IMG/VR virus record: IMGVR_UViG_3300012983_000034
Coordinates: 32,001 to 96,000 of that record
Length of the DNA stretch: 64,000 bases
Strand: one strand, 5' to 3'
From: a virus
Taxonomy: Duplodnaviria > Caudoviricetes
The notes beneath the pieces were generated by a model that was given only the letters and a program-made list of their open reading frames with translations, did not search any database and was not told the DNA's origin. Shown one piece after another: positions 30,406-63,215 of the stretch. A program made the position numbers and the translations under genes. Each line of letters begins with the position of its first letter. The stretch's first letter is position 1.

Positions 30406-30421
30406 TAAAATATGGATTTTA
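30406..30421. repeat. TAAAA-N6-TTTTA junction site
   Basis: taaaa-tatgga-tttta, abutting the tRNA-Gln CCA end. Confidence 0.7.
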
Positions 30422-30497
30422 TGGCTGCCCCTATTGGATTCGAACCAATGATGCAGGAGTCAAAGTCCTGTGCCTTAACCAGCTTGGCGAAGGGGCA
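30422..30497 (-). tRNA. tRNA-Gln(TTG)
   Basis: Cloverleaf; CAGGA-ctTTGac-TCCTG; TTCGAAT loop; CCA. Confidence 0.92.
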
Positions 30498-30502
30498 ATA
30501 TA

Positions 30503-30577
30503 TGGTGACGCATACGAGAATCGAACTCGTGTTACCGCCTTGAAGGGGCGGTGTCTTAACCGCTTGACCAATGCGCC
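30503..30577 (-). tRNA. tRNA-Glu(TTC) with C at position 33
   Basis: CCGCC-ccTTCaa-GGCGG; CCA. Confidence 0.85.
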
Positions 30578-30581
30578 ATAT

Positions 30582-30658
30582 TGGTATGCCTGAGAGGATT
30601 CGAACCTCCGACCCATTGATTAAAAGTCAATTGCTCTGACCAACTGAGCTACAAGCAC
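30582..30658 (-). tRNA. tRNA-Lys(TTT)
   Basis: ATTGA-ctTTTaa-TCAAT; CCA. Confidence 0.92.
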
Positions 30659-30662
30659 ATAT

Positions 30663-30750
30663 TGGTGCAAGGCATTTCCTCCTTGCCAGAGAGCTTTTCA
30701 TCTCTTATATATCCCCAAAAATATATAGCCTTTTGAAACGAGGATGCGCC
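30663..30750 (-). ncRNA. tRNA-sized multi-hairpin element ending in ACCA (non-canonical)
   Basis: Four consecutive hairpins; occupies a slot in the tRNA array; lacks TTC T-loop and GG D-loop. Confidence 0.4.
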
Positions 30751-30759
30751 CAAGTGGGC

Positions 30760-30836
30760 TGGTCTGGACAACAGGATTTGAACCTGCGGCATCTACATCC
30801 CAAATGTAGCGCTCTACCAAACTGAGCTATGTCCAG
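30760..30836 (-). tRNA. tRNA-Pro(TGG)
   Basis: CTACA-ttTGGga-TGTAG; CCA. Confidence 0.92.
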
Positions 30837-30839
30837 ATG

Positions 30840-30915
30840 TGGAGCTAGATAAGGGACTCGAACCCTTAACATCTTGATTACAAATCAAGCCCTCTACCAA
30901 TTGAGATAATCTAGC
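30840..30915 (-). tRNA. tRNA-Thr(TGT)
   Basis: CTTGA-ttTGTaa-TCAAG; CCA. Confidence 0.92.
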
Positions 30916-30919
30916 ATAT

Positions 30920-31013
30920 TGGCGCAGAGGGTGGGATTCGAACCCACGTGCCAGCTCATCACTGACAAACTGTTTTCAAGACAGCCTCGTTATGACCGCT
31001 TCGATACCTCTGC
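30920..31013 (-). tRNA. tRNA-Ser(TGA)
   Basis: CTGT-ctTGAaa-ACAG; long variable arm; G discriminator; CCA. Confidence 0.9.
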
Positions 31014-31051
31014 ATAGTAAGTGAGTATTTGCCCTCACTAACGGCATTTAA

Positions 31052-31177
31052 TTAGCCTTTGAGCTTTCTAATTCTTCGTTCGAGCTTACGAACGATTCTA
31101 CCATTCTCTCTACCTCTCTCCTTGAGAAGAGCAATTCTACACTCACACTTCAAAATTTCAAGTTCAACTGCACTCAT
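31052..31177 (-). CDS. 41-aa basic helical protein inside the tRNA operon (not in ORF track)
   Basis: MSAVELEILKCECRIALLKERGRENGRIVRKLERRIRKLKG; AAGGAG RBS. Confidence 0.6.
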   Translation of the reverse strand: MSAVELEILKCECRIALLKERGRENGRIVRKLERRIRKLKG

Positions 31178-31213
31178 TTGTATTTCTCCTTTGTTTGTTT
31201 TGAATTTATAATA

Positions 31214-31290
31214 TGGTGGGTCTTCAGGGACTTGAACCCTAAACCTGCTGGTTATGAGCCAGATGCTCTGACCAATTGAGCTAAAGACCC
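31214..31290 (-). tRNA. tRNA with CAT anticodon, probably Ile2 (lysidine) rather than Met
   Basis: GGGTCTTTAGCTCA start; CTGG-ctCATaa-CCAG; resembles Bacillota tRNA-Ile2. Confidence 0.8.
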
Positions 31291-31327
31291 ATATTCAATC
31301 CAGCAACTTAATGCTGGATTGTTTTTA

Positions 31328-31346
31328 TATAACCTTATTAGTTATA
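31328..31346. promoter_or_regulatory. TATAAC-N7-GTTATA candidate operator (family B)
   Basis: tataac-cttatta-gttata; related copies start at 24344, 38909, 44441, 56079, 57296, 61010. Confidence 0.6.
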
Positions 31347-31385
31347 CAAAGTTTGTTTTGTCGCTTTCTTCCCTCGACAGTGTGT

Positions 31386-31414: not shown

Positions 31415-31437
31415 TAGTTTTTTTGAAATTTTTTAAT

Positions 31438-32258: not shown

Positions 32259-32528
32259 TAAAATTATCTTTTTAAATGCTAAGTGACAATGATTTCTTTT
32301 CGCCACACTTAAAACAAGTATAATAATTAATAACATCGTTCGATGTAACGGTGCTTCCAGTTAGCTCCCATTCGTGTTCGCATTCTTTCTGTTTCTCATT
32401 TTCTTCTTTTTCTTGAATATAAATTTCTAACAAGACTGCTTCACACATCCTATCGTATTTGTCGCACCAATTACACGGCAATCTATACTTACAATCTTTC
32501 ATTCTTACCTCTTAAAATCTCAGTTTTA
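32259..32528. repeat. Two TAAAA-N6-TTTTA sites (32259-32274, 32513-32528) bracketing one gene
   Basis: Spacers ttatct and tctcag; each overlaps the upstream TAA stop. Confidence 0.8.
32272..32502 (-). CDS. Small Cys-rich protein
   Basis: CKYRLPCNWC...CEHEW...CFKCG. Confidence 0.55.
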   Translation of the reverse strand: MKDCKYRLPCNWCDKYDRMCEAVLLEIYIQEKEENEKQKECEHEWELTGSTVTSNDVINYYTCFKCGEKKSLSLSI

Positions 32529-34563: not shown

Positions 34564-36504
34564 TTAATCACTCATCACAGAAGTTTCGCCATACATTACA
34601 CCAGTGTCATACCACTGTCTTGCTGAAAATTCTTTATATCTTTCTTTGCTATAAGACTTAGAAGGTGTTAAAAATCCTACTACTCTCTGATATGTATCAG
34701 ACTTCTCTTCTCCGCATTCTGGGCAAATATCAGTTCCTACAAAACCGTGATGATTTTTGCATACATTAATCTTTGTATTGTAGCAGAAATAAATAACGCC
34801 TTGGCTTGCAATATAATTTAACATCTCCCAAGCCATATCAGTATTGGGGAAATTATTGTCAATATTAATATGAGCAATGGCACCGCCAGAACACTTGTTA
34901 TCAAGAATTGCGCTAGTTCTAATCTTTTCGTTGATTGTACATTTTTCAGTAAGAGGTATCCACTGATTACTATAAATAAAGTCATCGCTCTTGCCGAACA
35001 TTACATTATCTTTCGCACAAAGATTTACCGCTGCTCTTTCAGCAGGTACACTCTCGATGTTAAAAGAGTATTCGTCTGTAAAGTTGTCTTTAATGTCGTT
35101 TAAAACATTAAAAATCTTTTCTGAAAATTCAATAGCCTTATCAGTATAGAACTTATTACCAAATTCGTCAGTTGTAATATATCCAAACTTATCCATTACC
35201 TCGTATAATCCAAGGATTCCAACGGTACAATACTGCTTGTCCATTTCGATTCCGCCATTATCATAGTTAGGCAAAAGACCCTTTTCAATATTTCTCTTAA
35301 TAATATGTCTAACTCTGTCAAGTGTTTTACAGCACAAAGTAGTTCTCTTTTTAAGAATATTAAGATACTTCTTTTCGCTAATCTCTTCTTCAATTTCATA
35401 GAAGATGTGTACAAGATTAATGGTATTTACCTTTACAGAGCCAATACTCAGAGCTGTTCCACCGATACTATTAATAAATCCCTTAAGTTTTGTTGTATCA
35501 GATAAAAGTCTACAACAATTACTCAGAGTTGTTACATCTCCACTTACAAAGAAGTTGCTGTCATTCCACTTGCAGTTATGGTCTGAGCACCATCTTGCAA
35601 AGTCTTCATCAACAAATTTGCCATCTTTATATAACAGACTATAAGTTAATACAGGAAAGGTAAACATGTTCTCTTGTCTGATTTCAGAAACAACTTCCAT
35701 AAATATCTTTTGATGTTCAATAAACTCATCTACATAGTCAATGGCAAATGTACCATCAGGAAATTCAAGACCGCCAAAAAGAGCTTCATAATACTCTCTG
35801 TCAAAGATAGAAACATTTACAAAAGCGCTTTGGTCAATTCTCATAAAAGGCTGATTTAATCTATAAATCAACTTTTGAAAAGACTGTCTAATGTAATAAT
35901 CAGGATTATTAATGATATATCCAGTCTCACAATCTCTCTTCCAGAAATAATATGTCCAAACAAGGATATTGGGAATGCCAACCGCTCCAGAAGACCTGTT
36001 GCTCATAAAACTAATAAACTCAATAACATCGTCTACAAATGTTGTAAGATGTTTAGGAGGCTGAGAATTATAATTCTTCAAAAAGAACAAACCTTCTCTT
36101 GCAAGTCTTCCAAGGTCATATGCATAGCAGTAAGGAACATATGTAGTAGACGGAAAGTCGTGAAGATAAAAGCCACCAGTATATTCTGTTTCAAGCCATT
36201 CTTTTGCCGTCTTTAAACCATATTTCTTTTTAATTTCATAAAAAATCTTATTTGCAGCAATTACCTTATCAATAGACTTACCCTTCTCGCTACGAAAAGA
36301 TGCAATATCCTTATTTGATGCATTTGCATTTGCATCAATTGTTACATCTGCAACGTTCTTATCTACGAAAGCATCTATAAAATCTGAAAAATTCATTTGA
36401 GAATCGTGAATACCATTTAGAATCTCAAAATCTTCACCATATTTTTCTCTTAGCGAATTCAACGCTCTTTCAAAATCTTTATTAAATTTGAGTTCAACAT
36501 TCAT
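34564..36504 (-). CDS. nrdD: Class III anaerobic ribonucleotide reductase
   Basis: YLHD, YCY, SNCCRL, PAE, CxxH/CPECG, RVVGFL glycyl-radical motif. Confidence 0.92.
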   Translation of the reverse strand: MNVELKFNKDFERALNSLREKYGEDFEILNGIHDSQMNFSDFIDAFVDKNVADVTIDANANASNKDIASFRSEKGKSIDKVIAANKIFYEIKKKYGLKTAKEWLETEYTGGFYLHDFPSTTYVPYCYAYDLGRLAREGLFFLKNYNSQPPKHLTTFVDDVIEFISFMSNRSSGAVGIPNILVWTYYFWKRDCETGYIINNPDYYIRQSFQKLIYRLNQPFMRIDQSAFVNVSIFDREYYEALFGGLEFPDGTFAIDYVDEFIEHQKIFMEVVSEIRQENMFTFPVLTYSLLYKDGKFVDEDFARWCSDHNCKWNDSNFFVSGDVTTLSNCCRLLSDTTKLKGFINSIGGTALSIGSVKVNTINLVHIFYEIEEEISEKKYLNILKKRTTLCCKTLDRVRHIIKRNIEKGLLPNYDNGGIEMDKQYCTVGILGLYEVMDKFGYITTDEFGNKFYTDKAIEFSEKIFNVLNDIKDNFTDEYSFNIESVPAERAAVNLCAKDNVMFGKSDDFIYSNQWIPLTEKCTINEKIRTSAILDNKCSGGAIAHINIDNNFPNTDMAWEMLNYIASQGVIYFCYNTKINVCKNHHGFVGTDICPECGEEKSDTYQRVVGFLTPSKSYSKERYKEFSARQWYDTGVMYGETSVMSD

Positions 36505-39006: not shown

Positions 39007-41250
39007 TCAATTTTTTAAAAATTTTTGCATAAATGTATGGCGTGTGAGGTTCTCCTTCTTCTTAACCGCCTGATTCACACTTTGCAAACTACCTAAATGA
39101 TACAACTTTTCTTTCATACGGGTTAAACCAACATACAGTAAATTTGAATTTAACATAAAGATATGTGACTGGGGAGAACATAAAATTACCGTTTTAAATC
39201 CGCCGCCCTGTGATTTATGAATGCTTATTGCATATCCAAGCTTTACCATATTCATATCATTTCTATAATACTTAACACGAACACCATTAAAGTTTGCGAT
39301 TATATAAGTATTATATATTTCTTCAATAATCGCAGTTTCGCCGTTAGCCACAAATGCTGTTTGAGGTTCATCATCAAAGCCCCAACCCACATCCTTTTCG
39401 TCTTTTACTAATTCTGCGTTGTAATTATTAACGGTCTGAAGAATCAAGTCGCCTTGATAATAAGTTGTTTCGCCAACCTTCATATTAATTTCACTTCCGT
39501 AGTTTGGATTAGCAACTCTTTGAATCATATTATTTAAAACGACAGAACCACAATCACCAACATTCTTAGCAGTTAATACCTGAATATCTTCAATACTGTT
39601 GCCATTATCCAATAACTTCTTGTACAATGCCACTACATTTTTAGGAATTAATTCAGATGCTAAATCAATGAACATATAATCTTGATTATCACCAAATGTA
39701 GTTGCCTTAGACTTCATATCCTTTGTTAGATATTCTTTGCAACATCTTGTGTCGGTTGCAACACGCATCAAACCGCCACTTGAATATCTAAAAATCTTGT
39801 TCAATGTTACAGTAGGAATTATGTTTGCTTCCATAAAGTCGTGAAGCAAATTGCCACACGATACGGATGGCAACTGTGCATTATCGCCAATCATAAGTAA
39901 TTTAGTGTGCCTAAAATCAATTGCGTCAAGTAACTTCTTAAACAACCAAATATCAACCATTGAAAATTCATCTACAATCACAATGTCACAATTAAGAGGT
40001 TGCTCCTCATTATATGTCCAAGTGTTAGGAGGAATATAACCCAATCCTCTATGTATGGTTGAAGCAGGTTCATTAGTGTTCTCGTGTAATACCTTGGCAG
40101 CTCTACCAGTTGGACTCATTAACCTAAACGACTTATTGTTATCTTTTAACATATTAATGATACCTTGTGTCGAAGCAGTCTTTCCTGCCCCTGCAAATCC
40201 ATTAAGAATAGCAATATTGTTTCTACATACAACATCTAGGATTTGCATTTGTTCATCGGACAATTCAAACTCCCCTACTTTCTTGTACTTATGAGTATCA
40301 AATTCCCATATATTATTTGAGCAATTTAAATTATTGATAATTGTGTCAGCAATATATCTTTCAGTTTCATAAGTTTTACGAAGAGCAACAGTCATATCCT
40401 CTTTATTATAATAAATGTTATCGTCCTTAATAACATTAACAAAATGTTCAATACACGACGGAACAAGCTTTAAACATTGTTGTCTAAGGTCTGCAAGATT
40501 CATATTAGTGTGTCCTTCGTTTTCATTCTCTTCTAAGAGATATAGCATACAAGATAAACATCTATCTGGCGAAGTCTTAACATCATATTCAAAATTAATA
40601 ATGTTTTCTTTCTGCAATTGAAGGATGATAGAATCTGCCGTTTTGAAACCAATTCTACTTATTCTTGTTAATGCCGTATATGGCTGAGACTTTATTTTTT
40701 CTTTAAGTTTGTCAATCGAAGAATATTCATCATAAATCTTTTTGATAATACTCATAGACAAAACATTTTTAAATTCGATTACTAAATCCATAAGTGCAAA
40801 ATTCGTTACTATCTTATCCTTAATAACCGCAAATGTTTTTTCGCCTATTCCTTTTAGCTTAGACAGGTCTATATCGCCCAAATTATTGTCTTTAACTCTT
40901 TGAATAATGTCGGGATAATGTTCTACTAAAACCTTAGCCTGATTATATGTTAAGATTTCAGAAAGAAATAGAAATGTGCCTTCAGTAGTTGTAGGTATGT
41001 CACGCTTAATATTGATTACGTGATAACTTGTGCCATACTTATTCACTTGTTCTTCGGCTGTAATTTCATATTCAACTCCAAGCGTAAGGTCGCTTAATTC
41101 GCCAAGGATGCTTACGTTGCCATATTTATTCTGCTTAATATCAGGATAATCTTTTTTATTTACATCGACAGCGTATATCTTATAATCTGGCGTGTCATAA
41201 GTACACCTAATAATTACCCCTTTAAATTTAAATTGTTTTATTTCACTCAT
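39007..41250 (-). CDS. recD2: RecD2-like SF1B helicase
   Basis: GFAGAGKT, DEFSM, GDNAQL, HKSQG, YVGLTR. Confidence 0.9.
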   Translation of the reverse strand: MSEIKQFKFKGVIIRCTYDTPDYKIYAVDVNKKDYPDIKQNKYGNVSILGELSDLTLGVEYEITAEEQVNKYGTSYHVINIKRDIPTTTEGTFLFLSEILTYNQAKVLVEHYPDIIQRVKDNNLGDIDLSKLKGIGEKTFAVIKDKIVTNFALMDLVIEFKNVLSMSIIKKIYDEYSSIDKLKEKIKSQPYTALTRISRIGFKTADSIILQLQKENIINFEYDVKTSPDRCLSCMLYLLEENENEGHTNMNLADLRQQCLKLVPSCIEHFVNVIKDDNIYYNKEDMTVALRKTYETERYIADTIINNLNCSNNIWEFDTHKYKKVGEFELSDEQMQILDVVCRNNIAILNGFAGAGKTASTQGIINMLKDNNKSFRLMSPTGRAAKVLHENTNEPASTIHRGLGYIPPNTWTYNEEQPLNCDIVIVDEFSMVDIWLFKKLLDAIDFRHTKLLMIGDNAQLPSVSCGNLLHDFMEANIIPTVTLNKIFRYSSGGLMRVATDTRCCKEYLTKDMKSKATTFGDNQDYMFIDLASELIPKNVVALYKKLLDNGNSIEDIQVLTAKNVGDCGSVVLNNMIQRVANPNYGSEINMKVGETTYYQGDLILQTVNNYNAELVKDEKDVGWGFDDEPQTAFVANGETAIIEEIYNTYIIANFNGVRVKYYRNDMNMVKLGYAISIHKSQGGGFKTVILCSPQSHIFMLNSNLLYVGLTRMKEKLYHLGSLQSVNQAVKKKENLTRHTFMQKFLKN

Positions 41251-44826: not shown

Positions 44827-44857
44827 TTTTACCTCTTAAAACCTTTATTTTATTTGC

Positions 44858-45358: not shown

Positions 45359-45384
45359 ATCTTCTACCTCATAAAATCTTTGTT

Positions 45385-45798
45385 TTAATTGTTTCCTTCT
45401 TGTTCTAATAACCAATCTAAACATTGACTATCCGAAAAAACGCCTACAATTCTAATTCTGTCTGGCAAGAACGGTTCACACTGCCAATTAACAATATTGT
45501 AATGTACTCCATTTCTCACCATACTCTTCTCATATTCATAGCCGTCTTCCCAATAATCTTTATAATATATCTCTTCTACATATTCTGTAAGATAATTTTC
45601 ATTATATTTGAATGGATATTTAGTTAATACACATGGAGATTCAAACCAAACATCTTCAAATGGTGTGAAATAAATCGGCTCTATATGACTGTCGCATTCT
45701 ACAAGAAAATATACACTTGATAACTTTGTATCTCTAACAGAGTCAAAGTCAAAATTATTTAGATAATCATATAACTCTTGCTTTGTATTAAACTCCAT
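45385..45798 (-). CDS. Hypothetical protein
   Basis: Bounded by sites 45814 and 45372. Confidence 0.6.
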   Translation of the reverse strand: MEFNTKQELYDYLNNFDFDSVRDTKLSSVYFLVECDSHIEPIYFTPFEDVWFESPCVLTKYPFKYNENYLTEYVEEIYYKDYWEDGYEYEKSMVRNGVHYNIVNWQCEPFLPDRIRIVGVFSDSQCLDWLLEQEGNN

Positions 45799-45812: not shown

Positions 45813-46172
45813 TTAAAATCCCTGTTTTAAGCTCTCTTGCCTAAACTTATCTTCATATTCTCTGTAAGATTTTTCGAACGCCTTTGTCAAAGCGTCTAAT
45901 ATTTCGCCAGTATTTATAGCTTTCTCTCCGCAAGTAGTTATAGTTGTTGCCAAACTATTAACACACTCATAATCTGTGTTGCCGTGCAATGTTAGGTCGT
46001 CATGATTAAACGAATTACCACCAAAAGGAACTCTTATAACTTGTTCTGGTTCGCCAGTCCAGCTCCAACCACAATTAAAGCATTCCTTTTTGGGAATAGG
46101 AGGAAAAGACGCAAGAATTACATCGTGCAAATCGTGTCCACACTTAGGACAAGTTTCAATAATAATAGCCAT
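45813..46172 (-). CDS. Zinc-ribbon protein
   Basis: CPKCG...CFNCG; GAGGT RBS. Confidence 0.55.
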   Translation of the reverse strand: MAIIIETCPKCGHDLHDVILASFPPIPKKECFNCGWSWTGEPEQVIRVPFGGNSFNHDDLTLHGNTDYECVNSLATTITTCGEKAINTGEILDALTKAFEKSYREYEDKFRQESLKQGF

Positions 46173-46428: not shown

Positions 46429-46460
46429 ATATCTTTACCTCTTAAAATGTTAGTTTTAAA

Positions 46461-46709: not shown

Positions 46710-46731
46710 CCACCCTCTTAAAAACGATATT

Positions 46732-46965
46732 TTATATGTTAATTTGTTTGTCTGGATGCCTTGAATTAAATATCTGATATGCTCTTTTAAGGTTATCATC
46801 ATCCAATTCATCATGAAATATTTCAGTTTTGCAAACATCACAAGTACAAACATTTGCTTTAATTGTAATCTTGTCTATGCCAAGAACATTATAAGTTTCC
46901 TCTTTTTCAACAATAGATATCGGTTGAATCTCCAAACATTCTGGACAAAAATACTTTTCTTTCAT
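46732..46965 (-). CDS. Stand-alone YgiT/MqsA-type zinc finger protein
   Basis: CPEC...ETYNV.G..ITI....CDVC.TEIF...DDNL..AY; no HTH. Confidence 0.65.
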   Translation of the reverse strand: MKEKYFCPECLEIQPISIVEKEETYNVLGIDKITIKANVCTCDVCKTEIFHDELDDDNLKRAYQIFNSRHPDKQINI

Positions 46966-46992
46966 TAATAATAACCTCTTAAAATGAATCTT

Positions 46993-47286
46993 TTAATTGA
47001 TGTAAGGAATCTTCTCAAGCAATCTGTCAAGAACAGTTGGAAAAATTCTGCCATTAGAAATCAATAGTTCTCTTTCGTCAATTTCAAAATTCTTATATTC
47101 ATTCAAAAACTCTTTGTCTTCTTCAGTTGGATTATTCATCATGCGACTCAGTGCTTGCTCTGCTTCTTCGTGTGTTGTATCAATAGGAGTAAAACACATA
47201 TCGCATTTACCAGTACCAACAATTCCATATAAAATATGTTTCTCTTTATTATCGACATTGTTAATATAATAATCTTTTAATGTCAT
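46993..47286 (-). CDS. Hypothetical protein
   Basis: Bounded by sites 47298 and 46980. Confidence 0.55.
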   Translation of the reverse strand: MTLKDYYINNVDNKEKHILYGIVGTGKCDMCFTPIDTTHEEAEQALSRMMNNPTEEDKEFLNEYKNFEIDERELLISNGRIFPTVLDRLLEKIPYIN

Positions 47287-47302
47287 AACTTACCCCTTAA
47301 AA

Positions 47303-47473
47303 TTAAACTTTTAAATGTTCATCTTTTAACCAGCCTTTAAATGCATCCTGACAACTATTGTATTTATGGCAAACGCTTCTAGCTGGGCAACTACAGTCGT
47401 CAAAATTTATATACATAAGGAAGTTGATAAGCGTATCTTCATCCATTGTTTTTATATATTCAAAATTTGTCAT
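47303..47473 (-). CDS. 56-aa Cys-containing protein (not in ORF track)
   Basis: MTNFEYIKTMDED...CSCP...WLK; GAGGT RBS. Confidence 0.6.
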   Translation of the reverse strand: MTNFEYIKTMDEDTLINFLMYINFDDCSCPARSVCHKYNSCQDAFKGWLKDEHLKV

Positions 47474-47773: not shown

Positions 47774-47799
47774 TTTTCTTACCTCTTAAAATTCAGATT

Positions 47800-48141
47800 T
47801 TATTTCCTTGTGCAGTTATCAACATCGCACCAAGTCTTACGCCAATCTTTTACAGCGTCATCAAAACACTGCAACACCATATCCATATCCATTTCGCACC
47901 ATACAGGATAAGTTCTGCCGTATTTCTTTTTGGGAAGACCATAAATATCGCAATTCCTATTCCAAGCATCGACATCTTCTTTACTTTCATAATGAAATAT
48001 TGCTTGATTAAAGTCTTTTCGTCTACGGTCATTGTGGTCGCTATCAACCGTCATTCTTTTGATAAACAGTTCTCTTAATTCTGCAAAGTTCTTTTTACCT
48101 TCTGCAATTTCTTGCTGATTATGTTTACAATTACATCCCAT
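47800..48141 (-). CDS. Hypothetical protein
   Basis: ORF with GAGGT RBS. Confidence 0.55.
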   Translation of the reverse strand: MGCNCKHNQQEIAEGKKNFAELRELFIKRMTVDSDHNDRRRKDFNQAIFHYESKEDVDAWNRNCDIYGLPKKKYGRTYPVWCEMDMDMVLQCFDDAVKDWRKTWCDVDNCTRK

Positions 48142-48150: not shown

Positions 48151-49341
48151 TCAAATATTATCAAGCCAGCTCAAATCAGGTTCGGAACTACCATTTTTTA
48201 TAACATTACTACTTGAAGAAACAGTATCACTTCCAAGAAGTCCGCCAAACATATCCTCTCCCTTTTGAGCAGCTTCAAACTTCTCAAGATAAGCTTTATA
48301 AGGAAGATGCTTCGTAGCGCTATAACCACACAAATTAGCAAAGTAATAACTCTGTGCCCTTACACTTTCTTCATCATCCCAGAAGCATTCAAGAGACTTA
48401 GTTTCTTCATAGTCCTTTTCTCTAAGCTCAATATCCTTGATGGTTGTCGTAATAAGCTCAGTCCACTTCTCTACTATCTTATCATTCAATTCAACATCAA
48501 CGTGACAGTCTCTAATTCTGTATTTTCCTTTAACTTCGTCGGGCAAACAATCAATCCCATTAGTATCAAGCATCTTTTTAAGATACTCATCTGGTTCATA
48601 ACCATATGTTTTCAACCAAGTTTTCGCATTGCTTTGAAGACTCTCGCCAATCTTACATCTTTCAACATTTCTATATTTAACCGCTCCATTCTTCTGCTCG
48701 TACTCAATGGTGCAATATTTTAAGAAATTGAAGCGAGGTCTAATTTTATCTAAAGGAATGCCCATCTGATTCAATCCGATAGCATAACCAATTAACTGTC
48801 CTGAATTTTCTTCAAGCGTCTTACCAGTATAGATACTGCTTGATTTAAAGTCCAAAGGATAAACATACCCATCCTCATCTTTATATAAAGCGTCAATATA
48901 TCCTACGAACACATTACCGCCAACAACAAACACAATAGGCTTTTCAATTAACAGCTTGTGTCTATATACTGTATGGTTCTCAAAGAAGTGAATAAGATTA
49001 TTATTATACTTTTCACCAATGCTCTTATTCTTCTCTTCATCAGAGCGATTAAATTTAAGGTCTGCGATTGTAATTGCAGTAGTAAAACCATCATTATAAT
49101 CGTCAATCATATCCTCGTATTTAATCTTGCCCTCATAGAATTTATCTAATGTGTCATGGCAGATGGTACCTAAGGTAACATATGAGCTATCACATCTATC
49201 TTCTTTCGACTTTAAAATATACTTAAGAAGATACTCGAATTTAGATGTTAAATAAGTATTCATTCTCGACCAACTCCAGAGCCTATCAACATTATATTTT
49301 TGTTTTATTTTTTCTAGTTCTTCGTGCGTTAATCTTGCCAT
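48151..49341 (-). CDS. PD-(D/E)xK exonuclease (AddB/RecB-like)
   Basis: WSWSR, GTICH, E, GYID, DFKS, QL..Y motifs. Confidence 0.8.
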   Translation of the reverse strand: MARLTHEELEKIKQKYNVDRLWSWSRMNTYLTSKFEYLLKYILKSKEDRCDSSYVTLGTICHDTLDKFYEGKIKYEDMIDDYNDGFTTAITIADLKFNRSDEEKNKSIGEKYNNNLIHFFENHTVYRHKLLIEKPIVFVVGGNVFVGYIDALYKDEDGYVYPLDFKSSSIYTGKTLEENSGQLIGYAIGLNQMGIPLDKIRPRFNFLKYCTIEYEQKNGAVKYRNVERCKIGESLQSNAKTWLKTYGYEPDEYLKKMLDTNGIDCLPDEVKGKYRIRDCHVDVELNDKIVEKWTELITTTIKDIELREKDYEETKSLECFWDDEESVRAQSYYFANLCGYSATKHLPYKAYLEKFEAAQKGEDMFGGLLGSDTVSSSSNVIKNGSSEPDLSWLDNI

Positions 49342-50730: not shown

Positions 50731-50771
50731 ATATTTTTACCTCTTAAAACTGCAATTTTAAGTGCTAATTT

Positions 50772-50993: not shown

Positions 50994-51018
50994 TATTTCT
51001 ACCTCTAAAATCGTAATT

Positions 51019-51519
51019 TTATCTTGGAATTGATTCACATACAATGGGTTCACATACCATCGCACACAATTCACACGCAGCTTTTACTGCTTCTTTTGGC
51101 GTTGCTCCCATATACAATGCGCCGCTTGCATAATCTTGACCTGCACCAATTGCATAGTAGTCATCAATAGGAAATACCAGCATCCCCTCAATTGCAAATG
51201 CCTTGCCCTTATATGCAATTATGTACGGATTAACAAAACTATTATCGCCAGTTAAATCATTCTTCCATCTTCTAAATTCAATGGCAAAATCTAATACGCT
51301 CTTCTCATCCATACTTTCAATAGTGTGCGTCTTCATATAATGAAAGAACAAACTCGTTTCATCTGCATTGCCACAAGCACCAATAATCATATCGTTGTAT
51401 TTCATCATCTTTACAACTTTATTTTGTGCATTGTTGAGTTTCGTCCAACCCTGAACAACAATAGAATCAGAAGCCATTTCAATCTTGTCTTTGCTCACCT
51501 TACATACTACTACACTCAT
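51019..51519 (-). CDS. Ntn-hydrolase (HslV/proteasome beta-like) peptidase
   Basis: (M)SVVV...MASDS, K, AIGAG..YA.GA, AV..A pattern. Confidence 0.65.
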   Translation of the reverse strand: MSVVVCKVSKDKIEMASDSIVVQGWTKLNNAQNKVVKMMKYNDMIIGACGNADETSLFFHYMKTHTIESMDEKSVLDFAIEFRRWKNDLTGDNSFVNPYIIAYKGKAFAIEGMLVFPIDDYYAIGAGQDYASGALYMGATPKEAVKAACELCAMVCEPIVCESIPR

Positions 51520-51543
51520 TTTTTACCTCTTAAAATCACCATT

Positions 51544-51753
51544 TTAAATTCTATCATCAAGTATAAAAAACTCTGTATGAGACCCAACATCATACCATTT
51601 GAGACCATCTGTGTCTCTCCATTCTCTTACATATTGAATTGCAAAACATCTATCGTGACAGAACTTATGAATCTCTTTCCACGCTTCATCTTCTGTTTCT
51701 GGTTCCGCTATAATTCTTCTGTCGCCATAAGAATTTTCAAAATATAACTTCAT
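51544..51753 (-). CDS. Hypothetical phage protein
   Basis: Y.R.W...DVGSHTEFF motif. Confidence 0.6.
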   Translation of the reverse strand: MKLYFENSYGDRRIIAEPETEDEAWKEIHKFCHDRCFAIQYVREWRDTDGLKWYDVGSHTEFFILDDRI

Positions 51754-54907: not shown

Positions 54908-56023
54908 TTACTTACAAGCTTTAAGAATTTTCTTTGCTACTTCAACATTGTCAATTTCAGTAGGATTGCTAAAACCATTTTCTCTGCAAAGCTCAAGCAC
55001 AGGCTTAATTATATCAATTTCGGTTTTATTTGCACTAAAGAATTCAACGATTTTTTCTTTAATCTCATCAAGTTCTTTCTGTTTACGAGCAGCCTCTTCA
55101 GCCTCTGCAATTCTCTTTAAATTTTCAGCATCTTCTTTATCATTTTCTTTCTTGCGGTCTTCTACAGACACACCGTTCTTATTAATCTCAGCCTTAATTG
55201 CATCGGTAATAGCGGTAATAAATTCATCGGGGTCAAGATTAATTTCTGAAACAATGTTAGAAAATCTCGAACCAGAGTCAACAACAAAAGAATCATCACG
55301 GAACTTAATCTTTCTCGTTTCATCCTTGATTACGGTCTTAATCTCTTCCTTCTTGGTAACGATATTTTTCTTACCAGTCTTTTCTTTCTGCAATTCTCTG
55401 TCGAAATAAGCGAGGCAAAGGAAGTGAAGATTCTTTTTAAGAGCGTTAAAATAGTTCTGCTGCTGGTCAGAAGTAAGAATCTGATAAGTTTCATCATTAT
55501 AAATATTCTTAACTTCCTTGGTCTTTACGTGACCAATCCACCAAACCTTAACGCCAACACTTTCAAGTCTGTCTACCTGCTCGAAGATTAATTCAAGAGC
55601 CTTCTTATCTCCACCACCAAAACCATTCCAGCTTCCATTAATACTATCAGCTCTCTTATCGGGATTCTTTCGATTCCACAAAGCCAAAGCTTCCTGTTGA
55701 GCCATAAGAATCATTTGGTCATAAGTATCTCCAAAAACAACTCTGAGGTCTGCATAATCCGTAGTCTTGTTTTCTACGATATCATCAACGAATTCTACCC
55801 AATCATCCCAAGTTGGAATATTTTCAGCAACAATTCCTTCAATTGCATCAGCACCTCTTTCTCTGAAAAGTTCGGCAAAAATATACCCGTCTTCACCAAC
55901 AAGCTTTTCAGCCACCTGATACAACAAAGATGTTTTACCAATCTTAGGTTCGCCCAACATCATAAGCGAATAATTAAAAGGGTCTACCTTTACTTGATTC
56001 TTCTTACCAAATTTTCTTGCCAT
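54908..56023 (-). CDS. AAA_24 / Sak4-like ATPase
   Basis: GEPKIGKT, DTYD, GFGGG, IGH. Confidence 0.75.
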   Translation of the reverse strand: MARKFGKKNQVKVDPFNYSLMMLGEPKIGKTSLLYQVAEKLVGEDGYIFAELFRERGADAIEGIVAENIPTWDDWVEFVDDIVENKTTDYADLRVVFGDTYDQMILMAQQEALALWNRKNPDKRADSINGSWNGFGGGDKKALELIFEQVDRLESVGVKVWWIGHVKTKEVKNIYNDETYQILTSDQQQNYFNALKKNLHFLCLAYFDRELQKEKTGKKNIVTKKEEIKTVIKDETRKIKFRDDSFVVDSGSRFSNIVSEINLDPDEFITAITDAIKAEINKNGVSVEDRKKENDKEDAENLKRIAEAEEAARKQKELDEIKEKIVEFFSANKTEIDIIKPVLELCRENGFSNPTEIDNVEVAKKILKACK

Positions 56024-57831: not shown

Positions 57832-58578
57832 TTACATCACTTCTTTCATACTATTATTATAACTATATTCACCAAAATATTTTTCTTCCCATTCTTTTCT
57901 TTGTTTTACAGCGTCTTCAAAATTAATGAATCTCTTTTTATACTTTTCATTGTTTATGCCAATATGAGCAATCCATCTGTTTTCTGTTCTACTATAGCTA
58001 ACACCAGTGATACCAGATGTATTATTTGACAACAAACTTTTATTCATGCCATTTTGACTTGATGTAACAGGTCTTAATTCGGACTTTCTATTGTCGTGAT
58101 TTATATGTTTTATATGGTCTACCTTTTCTGAATCTGGAAACAATATTCTATGCATTTTAATTCCTTTTCGATGACTTCTTGTTCCAGAACAATGAGAGAC
58201 AACATATCCTTCTTTATCATAATACCAACAATAGTCTTTGATTTTATCATAATCTTCTAAATCAAAATAAAATTCTTCGCCTTTAGATGTGTATCCAATC
58301 CCATACTCTCCTGTTAAATCATATGTATTGTACCTTTTGCAAATATCCATATTTCTTTTTGCTATAGTTTCTGAGCTTAAACACCCACAAGATTTTGTGT
58401 TGTCTGATTTTAAACTGTTTCCTTTGACAATAACATTATTTCCGCAATCACATTTGCAGAGCCATCGTATATGTCGCTGACCACTTGGAGATACATACTC
58501 ATCGGCTCTTTCAACTACTGTTAATTTCCCAAATTTTTTACCAGTTAAGTCTACAAATTTTCCCACATTTCTTACCAT
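57832..58578 (-). CDS. HNH homing endonuclease with AP2 domain (paralogue of 49343-50071)
   Basis: DLTGKKFGKL, CKCDCG, SCGC, HR...DH...DNRKSELR, NTSG. Confidence 0.85.
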   Translation of the reverse strand: MVRNVGKFVDLTGKKFGKLTVVERADEYVSPSGQRHIRWLCKCDCGNNVIVKGNSLKSDNTKSCGCLSSETIAKRNMDICKRYNTYDLTGEYGIGYTSKGEEFYFDLEDYDKIKDYCWYYDKEGYVVSHCSGTRSHRKGIKMHRILFPDSEKVDHIKHINHDNRKSELRPVTSSQNGMNKSLLSNNTSGITGVSYSRTENRWIAHIGINNEKYKKRFINFEDAVKQRKEWEEKYFGEYSYNNSMKEVM

Positions 58579-58586: not shown

Positions 58587-58602
58587 TAAAATTTCTATTT
58601 TA
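58587..58602. repeat. TAAAA-N6-TTTTA junction site
   Basis: taaaa-tttcta-tttta, overlapping stop of 58600-58920, before SD of the HNH gene. Confidence 0.75.
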
Positions 58603-59318: not shown

Positions 59319-60467
59319 CTACACTTCTATAATCTTTATAGCCTTATCAATTTCCTCAACCACGTAATCAATATCTTCATATGTAATATCGCTTGGCATA
59401 GTCAACCTAATTGTTCTCATTGCCTCTTCATTTGATAAACCAATCTCTTTGAGTACATGACTTGGCACAATAGATTGCGAATTACAAGCTGAAGCTGTTG
59501 ATATTTTTATATCGCTCATATCAAGAGTGTACAACAAAGACTCGCCCGTTATATTCTGTGGAAATGTTACATTTATGTTGTTTGGCAATCTATAATAACT
59601 GTCTCCATTTAATTCACAGTCAAAATTTCGCTCAAGAAGTTCAATAAAATAATTTCGTTTTTCACATAATTCCTGTATTTTTTTGTGACCAATATCACAT
59701 AACTTCAAAGCTTCGTTCAATCCAATAATGCCAAATGTATTTTCTGTACCTCCACGCAAACCGTTCTCTTGATTACCATAAATAAGAGGTTGAATATCTA
59801 TTCCATTTCTTTTATATAAAAAGCCGACCCCTTTTAACACTGGAGAAATTTTATGACCGCTTACACTCATCATATCAATTCCCAATTCATCAACATCAAT
59901 AGGAATGCGTCCAAACGTCTGAGTTGCATCAATATGTAAGACACCACCATATCTATGAACCAACTCAGAAATCTGTTTAATTGGTTGAATCGTACCAATC
60001 TCGTTGTTAGCCATATGAATACCAACCAAGACAGGCTTTCCCTTTCGCATTATTAACATCTGCTCCAAAGACACACAATCAACAAATCCGTATTCGTCTA
60101 CATTACAGTAGCCAACAACAGCGTCTAAATCACTATTTTCAAGCAATTCTATAATGGATTTATGTTCTGCTCTAGTAGTAATAACATATGGTGTTTTATA
60201 CTTGTTTATCCAGATTTCATCGACCCAGCCTCTAATAGACATATTGTTGCTTTCGGAAGCACCACTTGTAAAAATAATCTCATTAGCTTCTGCACCTATA
60301 AATTTAGCGATATTGGTTCTACACTTATTTATCTCTTCTTTTACATCACTCGCATAGAGACTTGAAGGATTTTGCCAATATTTTTTCATTGCATTTGCTA
60401 TCGTATCAACAATAATATCATCGTCACATTTATATTCAGCGGTAGCAGCAGCGTCCAAATAAATCAA
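59319..60467 (-). CDS. iscS: Cysteine desulfurase (IscS/NifS family)
   Basis: YLDAAAT, FTSGASESNN, NNEIGTIQP, DATQ, SGHK (PLP Lys), STASAC (catalytic Cys). Confidence 0.9.
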   Translation of the reverse strand: MIYLDAAATAEYKCDDDIIVDTIANAMKKYWQNPSSLYASDVKEEINKCRTNIAKFIGAEANEIIFTSGASESNNMSIRGWVDEIWINKYKTPYVITTRAEHKSIIELLENSDLDAVVGYCNVDEYGFVDCVSLEQMLIMRKGKPVLVGIHMANNEIGTIQPIKQISELVHRYGGVLHIDATQTFGRIPIDVDELGIDMMSVSGHKISPVLKGVGFLYKRNGIDIQPLIYGNQENGLRGGTENTFGIIGLNEALKLCDIGHKKIQELCEKRNYFIELLERNFDCELNGDSYYRLPNNINVTFPQNITGESLLYTLDMSDIKISTASACNSQSIVPSHVLKEIGLSNEEAMRTIRLTMPSDITYEDIDYVVEEIDKAIKIIEV

Positions 60468-60481
60468 TCAAATCACCTCGT

Positions 60482-60982
60482 TTAAGACTCCAAAGAGTTT
60501 ACCATCTTTTTCATAATGTTATTATTATTAAACATCTCAACATTAATCATCTTTAACTCTTCCTCGTGCATAGTTGCTCTTTTAATTAGCGCCTTGTTAA
60601 GACATCTCAAATAAGCCAGTTGAATTCCGAAGGAAAGATTGAACTCATCTCCCTTATAGCAACAAGCCTCACTTCTAACCTTATCAGTTAAAAATTTTAC
60701 TTGAACTTTACGCTTGTTCGTTCTGTAAAACACATCATTGTGTCCATCAAATCCGACCATCGGAATCCAATTAGTCCATCCCTTAAAGTTTTCTTCGTGT
60801 ACAAAGTGTTTTTCAAAATCTTCAAAGCTTACAACACCAATTGCAGTTCTTGTCTTGGAATCTCTTAAAAGAAAAGAGTTGTCAAATACATTTGCAATCT
60901 CAAATACATCGCCAACTTTCTTAATCTTATCGTTCAACTCTTTAACCAAAACAACACGGTCATATTTTAATACAGTTTCCAT
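60482..60982 (-). CDS. Hypothetical protein
   Basis: First gene after promoter 61062. Confidence 0.55.
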   Translation of the reverse strand: METVLKYDRVVLVKELNDKIKKVGDVFEIANVFDNSFLLRDSKTRTAIGVVSFEDFEKHFVHEENFKGWTNWIPMVGFDGHNDVFYRTNKRKVQVKFLTDKVRSEACCYKGDEFNLSFGIQLAYLRCLNKALIKRATMHEEELKMINVEMFNNNNIMKKMVNSLES

Positions 60983-61033
60983 TTTTTAAATACCTTTCTT
61001 AATTTATTATATAACATTATTTGTTACGAATGC

Positions 61034-61062
61034 ATTATAACATATTATATATCGATTGTCAA
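61034..61062 (-). promoter_or_regulatory. Consensus SigA promoter
   Basis: TTGACA-17-TATAAT; family B site at 61010-61028 covers the start region. Confidence 0.85.
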
Positions 61063-61206
61063 TACTTTTTTGAAAATTTAATTTTAGTTTTTCAAAACTG
61101 ATAGGCTGAATAGCCTTATCAGTATCTACCTCCTTATCGGTCTCTGTTTCTATTGTCGTTGTTTTTTATTTCTTTTATAGTTTTCGTTTCCACTTATATA
61201 ATTTTC

Positions 61207-61572
61207 TTAGTTTAAAATAGTTATTTTATAATATATATTCTGAACATTTAGGATAAATTCATAACAACCGTCAGATATTCTTGAAAAACACTCTGTTATT
61301 TTTGATGCTAACACATTCACAAAATGTGTTTCATATGCGTCATTTTTTTTAAAAATAATTCTATCGCCTTCTACAGAAATTGTTGCGTTTCTTTCAGAAG
61401 CTCTCAATATAAGCGAAAAACACTCTGGAGAATTAAGTGGATTTTCTGGATATACATCTATGTTTACTTCTTTTATTTTAATATTATTTTTTAATGATGA
61501 CATTTTGTTTAAGTATAAATCGATTTCATCTTTGATAAATCCAAATTTCGTTAAAGTTTTTTCAGTAACCAT
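61207..61572 (-). CDS. Hypothetical protein downstream of SOS-box-like site
   Basis: GGAGAGGT RBS before MVTEKT. Confidence 0.5.
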   Translation of the reverse strand: MVTEKTLTKFGFIKDEIDLYLNKMSSLKNNIKIKEVNIDVYPENPLNSPECFSLILRASERNATISVEGDRIIFKKNDAYETHFVNVLASKITECFSRISDGCYEFILNVQNIYYKITILN

Positions 61573-61691
61573 GTAACATACCTCTCCAACTATGTATAGT
61601 AGCATTACACCACGAGGCACTTATTCGTACCTCGTGGCTTCATTCTCTGAAATTATATTACTATAATTATTTGAAAATTGCAATACTAAAT

Positions 61692-61705
61692 CGAACATTT
61701 GTTTG
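61692..61705. promoter_or_regulatory. LexA (Cheo) box-like site
   Basis: CGAAC-attt-GTTTG versus Bacillota GAAC-N4-GTTY. Confidence 0.55.
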
Positions 61706-61739
61706 ACAATTTACAATTTATTAATAACTACTTCATAGT

Positions 61740-62690
61740 TTATTCAAAAGAGTCTAGGTGTCCCTTGACTAATTCACGAAAATTACCAACCTCAATACTG
61801 CTATTACATCTCATTAACTCTTTGGATATTATCAAATGCGCCATTCTGTTACGACTATTATCAGCAAATGCTTCATTTAACGATATATTATTTTTATCTA
61901 ATTCAAGTTTGATTCGATGCATAATGCCGCTCGTATATAATTGTAAAGGCAATAAAGAATATTCTAAATACTCTTTGGCTATCTTTCTTAACTTTGCGTA
62001 GTATGTGAATTTATAACTATCATTTGATGCAGTTGACCTGTTTTCAATTTTAAACACGCTGTCTGAATAAACACCACGCATATCAACTTTGCATATACCG
62101 AATCTATTTCTTCGCTCCCAAATATTAATATCTGCAAGATTTTTTAAATCAGACGCAAACTTTTCTGGCACTTTTATTTTGTAGGTATGCCCATTATCTT
62201 CTTGTAAGGTTATTATACCATCATCGTTTATATCGGACTTTCTTAAATTCTTTAAAACGCTCAAATCATCATTATACACACCCAAATAAATACAACTAAA
62301 AAGCAATTCATAATATAATGCATTGTATTCTTCATATGTTGCAATATCTTTAATTACTCTTTGATATTCTTCATTGTTTATAAATTTCTTTTTTGCGTTT
62401 GGCTTTGCTTTCTTCCAAAGAAGTTTTTTATCCAAAGAATTAACCATTTGATATAAATTATCATTATCAACTATATTTTGTTCTTGCAACCACTTAGCAT
62501 ACATTCCTAATACATAACAAGTTGTTATAATTTCCTTTTGACTACTTGGTTTTCTGTCGAGTATAAACTGTTCAAGCTCCATTAAACTATAATTTTCGAT
62601 ATTGGTTTCAGCATTTTTAAGTACGAATTTAACCACCTTGGCTGTGTTCGGCACTTGAACTGACTCCATAAATCGCTCTACATTATTCAC
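61740..62690 (-). CDS. MrpR(YopR)-like degenerate tyrosine-recombinase-fold repressor
   Basis: Y..W SAM-like N-domain, KKFI..EE, IYLGV....S.L.NL..SDI, L.P..L.TSG; catalytic R and HxxR absent. Confidence 0.65.
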   Translation of the reverse strand: MNNVERFMESVQVPNTAKVVKFVLKNAETNIENYSLMELEQFILDRKPSSQKEIITTCYVLGMYAKWLQEQNIVDNDNLYQMVNSLDKKLLWKKAKPNAKKKFINNEEYQRVIKDIATYEEYNALYYELLFSCIYLGVYNDDLSVLKNLRKSDINDDGIITLQEDNGHTYKIKVPEKFASDLKNLADINIWERRNRFGICKVDMRGVYSDSVFKIENRSTASNDSYKFTYYAKLRKIAKEYLEYSLLPLQLYTSGIMHRIKLELDKNNISLNEAFADNSRNRMAHLIISKELMRCNSSIEVGNFRELVKGHLDSFE

Positions 62691-62815
62691 AGTTTATCCT
62701 CCTTTCACTATTATATTGTTTTCTATATAATAACACTTATCGATAAACCAATCAACAATATAGACTTATTGCATTTTTTACTGTATATATTTAGGAATTA
62801 TGAATAAATATAATT

Positions 62816-63166
62816 TCAACAAGATTTGTTCTCATTATCAATACGTTCGATATCTACATTCTCATCATCGTCTACATATCCATCGTCTTCTATATATTCT
62901 TCATATACGATTTTGATAACATCGTAAGACAACCAATCAATAAAAAGTAATACTGGAACAAAATACCAAATTAAAAATCCAGCAAACCCATTACCCATAA
63001 ACACTAAAATAAACGGATAAAAGAACAATGCAATAGTGGCAAGACCATAGATAATCAAGTTTGCCGTGCAAAAGCACATTATAGCTCGTACAAAAAGCCA
63101 CATCCAATTACTATATTTTTTATTAAATGATTCCAACATATTTTTAATTAGCTTCATATTTTTCAC
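62816..63166 (-). CDS. Membrane protein
   Basis: Two long hydrophobic segments, acidic tail. Confidence 0.55.
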   Translation of the reverse strand: MKNMKLIKNMLESFNKKYSNWMWLFVRAIMCFCTANLIIYGLATIALFFYPFILVFMGNGFAGFLIWYFVPVLLFIDWLSYDVIKIVYEEYIEDDGYVDDDENVDIERIDNENKSC

Positions 63167-63199
63167 TCCTATTATTTATTTAATTTATTTTGTCGTGCA

Positions 63200-63215
63200 T
63201 AAAACTATGTTTTTA
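63200..63215. repeat. TAAAA-N6-TTTTA junction site
   Basis: taaaa-ctatgt-tttta, 10 nt after stop of 63226-63654. Confidence 0.6.

Follow-up and report, generated by a model that had tools for sequence, protein, structure and literature searches.

In T4-type phages, promoter-early stem-loops (PeSLs) have been proposed to act as linkers for homologous recombination (Arbiol et al. 2010, PMC2839356; Comeau et al. 2014, PMC4122927), and in the Cluster K mycobacteriophages start-associated sequences, SAS and ESAS, have been described, the function of which is unknown (Pope et al. 2011, PMC3203893). A third element, SPBRE, is the operator of MrpR (YopR) in SPbeta, is ~15 bp long and is found at around ten promoters (Kohm et al. 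2023, PMC10516654). Here we describe an element that shares features with all three, the dyad TAAAA-N6-TTTTA, from a 64,000-nucleotide stretch of tailed phage DNA (the window) that comprises bases 32001-96000 of the 109,934-bp IMG/VR contig IMGVR_UViG_3300012983_000034 (34% GC, CheckV 78% complete; hereafter G000). No paper describing this dyad was found, either in SPbeta or elsewhere.

The accessory genes of phages, many of which serve counter-defence, turn over very fast, and how genes without relationship to each other come to fit into working operons is an old and open question, to which the linker hypothesis of modular evolution is addressed. The six bases at the centre of each dyad behave as labels which keep their order along the genome as the genes between them are replaced, and we think it reasonably probable, though far from secure, that the dyads are address-coded junction linkers that guide the in-register exchange of genes in SPbeta-like phages.

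A dyad of fixed spacing at early-gene junctions

The window holds 22 exact copies of TAAAA-N6-TTTTA against 1.1 +/- 1.1 (maximum 4) in dinucleotide-preserving shuffles, a background close to the rough figure of one per 64 kb given in an earlier reading of the same DNA made without database searches (the sequence-only reading). All 17 of the coordinates listed in that reading are exact matches, and five further exact copies start at 13026, 15752, 24403, 39181 and 61213. Any other spacing of the arms from N0 to N14 is found only 0-3 times in the window, and reversed or direct arrangements of the arms stay at background level. The whole genome contig has 44 N6 dyads, with 0-5 for each other spacing, and when all fetched related loci are pooled there are 385 against 7-25 at other spacings, so the comparison that the sequence-only reading had itself proposed comes out in favour of N6 in window, genome and relatives alike. 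Only 14 one-mismatch variants are present in the window, which argues that the arms are under tight constraint. In contrast to the arms, the six-base centres are all different, as had been claimed for the first 17, and this holds throughout the phage genome.

From its gene content and order the phage is SPbeta-like, as it has the architecture of Bacillus phage SPbeta (a YomM-like recombinase encoded ahead of the tape-measure gene, an SprA-like integrase, the same order of the Sak4, helicase and DnaE-type polymerase module, and in addition a YorL-like protein) and because homologues of the YonO RNA polymerase are encoded by the complete relatives G001, G002, G004 and G005; the YonO region is missing from the 78%-complete contig of G000 itself. 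Pfam annotation of G000 includes RecD2, NAD-ligase, a Toprim primase, an AAA_24 (Sak4-like) protein, a PD-(D/E)XK nuclease, two HNH-AP2 proteins, thymidylate synthase and others. The relatives, referred to below by G and L numbers, come from animal gut and rumen-type samples. The dyad together with a Shine-Dalgarno sequence (SD) was found in 77 IMG/VR stretches, and a scan of metagenome contigs for the same combination gave mostly single chance matches, the contigs with several matches being phage-sized and binned into gut metagenome-assembled genomes.

The consensus of 256 unique oriented sites from many contigs is W-TAAAA-N6-TTTTA-A-G-A-G-G-T-R-A. Read on the coding strand, a junction consists of the upstream stop codon, the dyad, the AGAGGT SD and an ATG that mostly lies 10-14 nucleotides (nt) after the site. 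The SD is directly downstream in ~90% of the unique sites, and the TAA of the left arm is the stop codon of the upstream open reading frame (ORF) in 22 of 38 oriented sites genome-wide; the sequence-only reading had observed both arrangements, the latter in nine sites. Most copies are located in the minus-strand early/replication block, and 35 of the 37 SD-adjoined dyads of G000 face minus-strand early genes. Junctions with a dyad have an intergenic gap of 23-37 nt, whereas those without are either overlapping or coupled (gap <=14 nt) or else long, and the core-gene junctions nrdD/nrdG, dnaE/recD2 and helicase/primase do lack it, as previously stated. Upstream of position -1 nothing is conserved in the 256 oriented sites (information content below 0.3), with neither a -35 nor a -10 signal, so that given the short gaps there is no room or signal for a sigma-70 promoter. 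A sigma-70 promoter scan of the densest array was uninformative (79 matches against 71 in shuffles), a terminator scan of the same array found no minus-strand terminators, and a search of G000 for the Sigma70_r2 domain gave no match.

The dyads of the window are listed below by window position, with the label (the six central bases, coding strand) where one is assigned and ORF lengths in amino acids (aa).

13026..13041, plus strand: dyad after the stop of a plus-strand structural-region ORF
15752..15767, no strand: dyad in the plus-strand region, no SD adjacent
24403..24418, no strand: dyad ~230 nt upstream of the large serine recombinase gene
30406..30421, minus strand: dyad TCCATA, directly after tRNA-Gln and before a 97-aa ORF
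32259..32274, minus strand: dyad AGATAA, at the junction preceding a 65-aa ORF
32513..32528, minus strand: dyad CTGAGA, between dut (150 aa) and a 76-aa ORF, SD fused
39181..39196, no strand: dyad CGGTAA, inside the recD2 coding sequence and not a junction; also in L001 and G001
44837..44852, minus strand: dyad TAAAGG, last site before dnaE; label at the same position in at least 10 relatives
45372..45387, minus strand: dyad CAAAGA, the slot from here to TAAAGG holding 7 unrelated ORFs in 7 contigs
45814..45829, minus strand: dyad CAGGGA
46443..46458, minus strand: dyad CTAACA
46719..46734, minus strand: dyad TATCGT
46980..46995, minus strand: dyad GATTCA
47298..47313, minus strand: dyad GTTTAA
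47484..47499, minus strand: degenerate dyad preceding a 56-aa ORF, mutated in the left arm, with the right arm and the SD intact
47787..47802, minus strand: dyad TCTGAA, GCTGAA in relatives; the downstream ORF is 86% identical to the ORF behind GATTAG in L054
50385..50400, minus strand: dyad TTGAGG
50745..50760, minus strand: dyad TTGCAG
51006..51021, minus strand: dyad TTACGA
51531..51546, minus strand: dyad TGGTGA, first site after the primase/F4 core genes
58587..58602, minus strand: dyad TAGAAA, before a 106-aa ORF
61213..61228, no strand: dyad at the 3' end of a 137-aa ORF, no SD adjacent
63200..63215, minus strand: dyad between 142-aa and 113-aa ORFs, SD 42 nt downstream and not fused

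The tRNA-Gln gene that precedes TCCATA belongs to a group of seven minus-strand tRNA genes (Gln, Glu, Lys, Pro, Thr, Ser, Met) at window 30422-31290.

Labels that keep their order while genes change

Among 251 unique site contexts only 110 six-base centres are used, and the order of the centres is conserved across many contigs. One run reads GACAGA>GTAAAG>GCAGAG>GAAGAT>...>GAAAGG>GAAGGA>TCGAGA>AGAATA, another AGCGTA>TACGAA>ATAAAA>ATAGAG>ATGAAG>ATATAC, and a third leads up to the polymerase gene, GTTTAA>GATTCA>TATCGT>CTAACA>CAGGGA>CAAAGA>TAAAGG>dnaE. The order extends to distant phages: G002 and G004, the core proteins of which are only 24-45% identical to those of G000 (DnaE 28-29%), keep the mini-array AGCGTA>TACGAA>ATAAAA>ATAGAG>ATGAAG, a further mini-array, GGATAA>TGACGA>GAGTGA, is kept in G002, G004 and G001, and no homologous ORFs were found inside or beside the mini-arrays of G002 and G004. 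The slot CAAAGA>TAAAGG contains seven different proteins of 58-201 aa in its seven contigs, and four other slots behave alike. The sequence-only reading had reckoned that an identical order of spacers across diverged phages would speak against a shuffling of genes; the sites do keep such an order, but the genes between them are swapped.

How far the conserved unit reaches can be seen from 536 pairs of same-label sites with unrelated far flanks, in which excess identity is present from -1 to +22 only and is at background by -2 and +23; identity so confined implies a heritable island of ~24 bp, made up of the W, the 16-mer and the SD. The labels are also kept more strictly than their surroundings. 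The DnaE proteins of G000 and L244 are 86% identical and their genes 80%, with only 54% identity at four-fold sites, yet of the 12 labels lying upstream of dnaE 10 are shared in the same order, and 60 of their 60 bases match (P ~6e-17 if they changed at the four-fold rate, 1e-6 for the overall DNA rate); in L002 five labels are retained (P ~3e-10).

Identical labels are 12 times commoner than expected (570 against 48). One-mismatch pairs among 119 distinct labels are at the random level (72 against an expectation of 77), so there is no trail of decaying label variants, and within a genome near-identical labels are rarer than expected, with 1 in G000 against 9.0 +/- 3.3 (P = 0.002) and 5 in G001 against 12.9 (P = 0.02). 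Such conservation combined with distinctness is hard to explain by the affinity of a protein and fits a centre that is read by base pairing with a partner DNA. It is also seen that neighbouring labels along an array share their first base or bases, in runs of G.., AT.., TT.. and C.., and a site may give rise to new ones through local duplication, the centre of the copy then diverging. In G004 the sites labelled ATAAAA and ATAGAG are present twice (89341-90780 and 136545-136815), in opposite orientation and ~47 kb apart; if labels guide recombination, these duplicate pairs would invert the intervening segment.

Assembly chimeras in metagenomes were considered as a cause of this pattern and rejected, as four loci from four different samples (L002-L005) carry the same sites and the pattern recurs in cultured isolates, by which assembly artefacts are ruled out. 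In SPbeta (NC_001884) the N6 dyad is present 34 times and other spacings 0-3 times. Almost every copy is intergenic, some of them between convergent or divergent genes or near terminators, the SD follows at 10-20 nt downstream and is not fused to the dyad, and SPbeta and the gut phages have no labels in common. The order GATGCA>GTAAAA>(TTGAAG)>AGACTG>GATAGT>TATTTA is kept in SPbeta, phi3T, Goe11, Goe13, Goe14 and SPbetaL3. Within it, Goe13 and Goe14 have a yoqD segment that is 100% identical to that of SPbeta (86073-86907) and is flanked by unrelated DNA at either side; one end of the segment lies 1-2 nt before the dyad GATGCA and the other 6 nt after GTAAAA, and in Goe11 and SPbetaL3 the same slot is occupied by a different 2.1-kb gene.

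Genome-wide, SPbeta and phi3Ts have 21 labels in common, all in order, and 8 of their 54 homology-block ends are within 25 nt of a dyad, where randomly placed positions give 0.9 (at most 5 in any of 2000 trials) and a gene-end proxy gives 2.5. A similar enrichment is found in the IMG/VR contigs, where 16-18% of BLAST homology ends fall within 60 nt of sites, a zone that makes up 4.7% of the sequence, and cluster from -10 to +40 of the site. Contigs from three animal gut/feces DNA runs match the window piecewise, with joints or ends at the sites 44837, 45372, 45814, 46443, 47298, 47787, 50745 and 51531. Near-identical contig pairs that differ by a single slot were not found among the metagenomic loci, such cases being seen only in the cultured SPbeta relatives. 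The expectation in the sequence-only reading that breakpoints in relatives would coincide with the sites is therefore borne out as an enrichment, but most SPbeta/phi3Ts boundaries lie elsewhere and some crossovers appear to fall outside the centre.

The labels are not tied to the genes beside them. Only 14 of 396 pairs of same-label sites have a homologous downstream ORF and 7 of 344 a homologous upstream ORF. In a series of relatives graded by DnaE identity (94-77%), the families F6, F10, F16, F17 and F19 change slot or label side, and the label scaffold stays as these ORF families move. For the two best aligned moved ORFs, homology begins at the right arm or at the SD/start codon and stops inside or near the end of the ORF. 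When neighbours are compared without restriction to small array ORFs, a difference of 24% against 0-6% emerges which reflects the synteny of core genes. It is persistence, and not a need for them in gene turnover, that is the distinctive property of the dyads.

Several other genes of this phage can be mentioned here. HNH-AP2 homing-endonuclease genes lie at window 49343-50071 and 57832-58578, and a copy that is 46-50% identical is found between dnaE and recD2 in L001 (6040-6777), which implies that these genes are mobile within the replication module. The early region further contains a class-V aminotransferase (cysteine desulfurase-like, window 59319-60467) and a nucleoside 2-deoxyribosyltransferase-like gene (window 57402-57830), the products of which may have a role in nucleotide or DNA modification. 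At genome 104528-104911 a cREC_REC domain (cyclic-phosphate processing receiver) is present in a 127-aa protein that has a 59% identical homologue in G004 and is a candidate for a counter-defence function. The anaerobic ribonucleotide reductase encoded by nrdD (window 34564-36504) is 91% identical in protein to that of G004, against the 24-45% seen for other core proteins, and this suggests a recent horizontal transfer between very distant SPbeta-like phages.

A proposed exchange by address and the alternatives to it

The mechanism we favour is as follows. A dimeric protein most likely binds double-stranded DNA at the arms, W-TAAAA and TTTTA-W set exactly 6 bp apart, because these are one helical turn apart, show no stable folding and in SPbeta occur in varied contexts. 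The six central bases would act as a position-specific label, and in the gut clade the fusion of dyad and SD would terminate an incoming ORF and restart translation of the next. Sites with the same label on co-infecting or resident phages would then offer 16-24 bp of perfect identity, and since label and arms (with the SD) are the only sequence common to unrelated accessory genes, exchange would proceed in register, slot by slot. Different labels within one genome would limit ectopic deletion. The uniformity of labels across the phage community may reflect either continual exchange or selection to remain exchange-competent.

As for the chemistry, short-homology annealing or recombination by a Sak4-type system of the phage, or by that of the host, would be favoured over a dedicated site-specific recombinase, because each of the five motif-bearing genomes that were compared encodes a Sak4-like protein (SPbeta, as annotated, G000, G001, G002 and G004), because part of the exchange seems to fall outside the centre, and because no enzyme co-varies with the motif. 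No Sak4-like protein was found in the motif-less G005. Exchange outside the centre is indicated by SD variants, 1-7 nt past the right arm, that are partly linked to the label. The proteins of the window that bear on the question are the following.

24649-26271: large serine recombinase, 540 aa, SprA-like
48151..49341, minus strand: PD-(D/E)XK nuclease inside the array, putative recombination exonuclease
54908..56023, minus strand: AAA_24 (Sak4-like) protein, putative short-homology recombinase

A number of observations weigh against exchange guided by addresses. To be efficient, homologous recombination usually needs as much identity as these 16-24 bp or more. The dyads are dispensable, as a close relative, L248 (metagenome contig ULJR01004974.1, DnaE 77% identical), has none and carries an ORFan array with junctions of 1-23 nt, and G005 has a single dyad and ORFan arrays packed with tight junctions. 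Homologous ORFs are found behind different labels in 24 pairs, compared with 14 behind the same label, and the 3' breakpoints of relocated homologous ORFs are often inside ORFs. Where small array ORFs are homologous, the ORFs next downstream of them never are, with an exact dyad in between (0/53) or without (0/54), so ORFs can turn over without dyads. Of the 54 homology ends between SPbeta and phi3Ts, 46 are not at dyads, and in the laboratory hybrid Hyb1 (phi3Ts x SPbeta) the switch from one parent to the other took place where the two are 99.9% identical over at least 19 kb, a case of ordinary recombination in long homology that is uninformative on dyads. The fixed labels are accounted for by an argument at the level of populations alone, and both the binding protein and the exchange reaction are proposals made from sequence.

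It is possible, but in our view unlikely, that a dedicated recombinase binds the arms and exchanges only sites with identical centres, which would amount to a natural recombinase-mediated cassette exchange between heterospecific sites. The invariant arms and strict 6-bp spacing have the geometry of a tyrosine-recombinase site, the centres are conserved and those of one genome differ from each other, as would be needed if overlaps had to match, and breakpoints in the isolates fall within a few bases of the site edges, where only 16-18 bp are shared. Moreover, at least one tyrosine recombinase, YomM-like or Xer-like, is present in every genome examined. The sequence-only reading had held that the only gene with a tyrosine-recombinase fold looks inactive, and in this it was mistaken for the genome as a whole: outside the window (genome 14105-15139), just upstream of the tape-measure gene and so in the same position as yomM of SPbeta, G000 encodes a YomM-like tyrosine recombinase of 344 aa with apparently intact catalytic residues, and besides the large serine recombinase inside the window there is also a mini-resolvase. 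G000 has a single PF00589 match; it belongs to the structural module, and the closest oriented junction dyad is ~47 kb away. The terminator hairpin that follows the YomM-like gene (genome 15167) has a TAAAA-N6-TTTTA dyad as its loop.

What tells against such an enzyme is that no lineage tracks the motif among the YomM-like, Xer-like, mini-tyrosine and serine recombinases compared; the YomM-like enzyme is present in the motif-less G005 and absent from G002-G004, G002 and G004 using a different one. Neither does any other protein fit the pattern in a proteome-wide screen for presence in SPbeta, G001, G002 and G004 and absence in G005. The conserved arms are only 5-6 bp long and known recombinase half-sites are far longer, the label-linked SD variants place some crossovers outside the centre, and ORFs move between different labels.

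It seems similarly doubtful that the dyad is simply a regulatory or architectural docking site, at which a dimeric phage or host protein represses, insulates or organises early operons, with mosaic boundaries falling there only because no other intergenic sequence is conserved. Two 5-bp half-sites separated by a helical turn are the classical target of helix-turn-helix dimers, and the dyads are intergenic and regularly spaced, oriented with transcription in the gut clade and placed in varied intergenic contexts in SPbeta; in addition, the turnover of ORFs does not depend on them. However, a protein that accepts more than 100 centres gives no reason for base-for-base conservation or for the avoidance of near-identical labels, the motif is dispensable in close relatives, no co-varying phage protein was found, and the dyad is not the MrpR operator. 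The SPBRE motif, approximately ACAAAWAATATGTATA, is found upstream of 9 of 10 MrpR ChAP-seq peak genes and is distinct from the dyad. Three SPbeta dyads (76171, 99498 and 129297) lie in promoter regions that also bear SPBRE (aimR, yorE and yosX), the two motifs being distinct and sometimes adjacent.

An element acting at the level of RNA, either an intercistronic hairpin or operator for the control of translation or a signal for endonucleolytic processing of polycistronic early mRNA, is very improbable. In its favour, the gut-clade dyad immediately precedes the SD and shares bases with the stop codon of the preceding ORF, and the labels are purine-rich on the coding strand. Yet the hairpin is unstable, the 16-mer folding with a minimum free energy of ~0 kcal/mol and an arm pairing probability of 0.33-0.41; an extended hairpin through the centre was rejected, as the ends of the centre are not complementary. 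In SPbeta, furthermore, the SD is separate and the dyads also occur at convergent, divergent and terminator-proximal positions, and the conserved centres are left unexplained. The sequence-only reading had itself offered a dimeric regulator site or an RNA signal as alternatives, and these could give the arms a role but do not explain the conserved centres.

That the dyad is a promoter for a YonO-type phage RNA polymerase, with transcription starting at AGAGG, is hardly credible: such a role would suit a motif as compact (~21 bp) and oriented as this one, which precedes many genes, but YonO is reported to transcribe late genes and the dyads belong to early accessory arrays, a YonO homologue is present in G005 with its single dyad, and the distance from dyad to gene varies in SPbeta. 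A search for the single-subunit RNA polymerase domain PF00940 gave no match, but its controls were likewise unmatched.

Comparison with described systems

Address-guided exchange can now be set against systems already known. The sequence-only reading had likened the arrays to integrons and had seen in them a phage system for capturing or shuffling accessory genes. Of this, a real, oriented and non-random junction element at which homology often begins or ends has stood, and the integron analogy has not. As in arrays of attC and attI, short and mostly promoterless ORFs are separated by repeated sites. However, attC is a folded single-strand substrate that belongs to its cassette, whereas the dyad is a 16-bp positional element linked to neither the upstream nor the downstream ORF, in an order fixed across diverged phages, and the few same-label pairs with homologous ORFs, together with the 24 pairs behind different labels, exclude a cassette that moves as a unit. 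Furthermore, no IntI with attI and Pc is found beside the array, the recombinases that are found do not co-vary with it, and the 24-bp island contains no GTTRRRY core, attC being an imperfect inverted repeat of 57-141 bp.

The geometry of dif/pdif, also invoked earlier, does not fit either. The pdif sites of Acinetobacter plasmids and chromosomal dif, which are acted on by XerC/XerD, do have inverted arms around a 6-bp centre and flank exchangeable modules, but they are 28 bp long with distinct XerC and XerD halves of 11 bp each. The arms of the dyad are symmetric and conserved over only 5-6 bp, information being at background by -2 and the downstream conservation being that of the SD and not of a symmetric arm, and its modules are without sites of their own.

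SPBRE, like the dyad, is a repeated intergenic element of SPbeta-like phages, and its binder has a tyrosine-recombinase fold; the sequences differ, and the 34 dyads of SPbeta are mostly not at SPBRE promoters. With SAS/ESAS the dyad shares a layout of inverted repeat with spacer of variable sequence, SD block and start codon, as well as a location in the non-structural half of the genome in one orientation. The arms of ESAS are nevertheless 17 bp with spacers of 4-13 bp, against arms of 5 bp and a spacer of exactly 6 bp, and ESAS travels with gene families whereas dyads and their labels are independent of the families of the flanking ORFs.

A parallel of a different kind is found in engineered heterospecific lox and FRT sites (Cre/FLP, 13-bp arms), where only identical centres recombine, giving in-register exchange with no cross-reaction within a molecule. 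The dyads likewise combine constant arms with variable centres that are distinct within a genome, though their arms are only 5-6 bp. It is a tentative and on present evidence rather unlikely idea that SPbeta-like phages carry a natural addressable cassette exchange in which an arm-reading protein recombines only sites with identical centres. If true, dozens of mutually incompatible addresses would allow accessory genes, probably anti-defence genes, to be swapped slot by slot without deletion or scrambling; this would be the biological counterpart of engineered lox/FRT exchange, and the enzyme that reads the addresses would be a new recombination tool. If instead short homology alone is at work, 16 bp (24 bp where the SD is fused) can structure an accessory gene pool across phage genera. 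As the group includes SPbeta, which is genetically tractable in Bacillus subtilis, the mechanism is directly testable.

The closest described kind remains the PeSLs. Both are intergenic repeats that end in an SD, lie among ORFans (for PeSLs, in hyperplastic regions) and stand at the boundaries of insertions, deletions and replacements, but a PeSL is ~100 bp long and consists of a sigma-70 promoter and a GC-rich terminator hairpin, whereas the dyad is 16 bp, AT-rich and neither promoter nor terminator. A further trait of PeSLs is the formation of excised mini-circles when neighbouring elements recombine. Above all, neither PeSLs, for which they are not reported, nor SAS/ESAS have position-specific centres conserved in order. 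In the SPbeta-like phages a 16-bp element outlasts every gene around it, with more than 100 six-base addresses in a fixed order between phages whose polymerases are only 28% identical, and in cultured isolates it bounds swapped genes to within a few bases, which points to ordered, in-register exchange.

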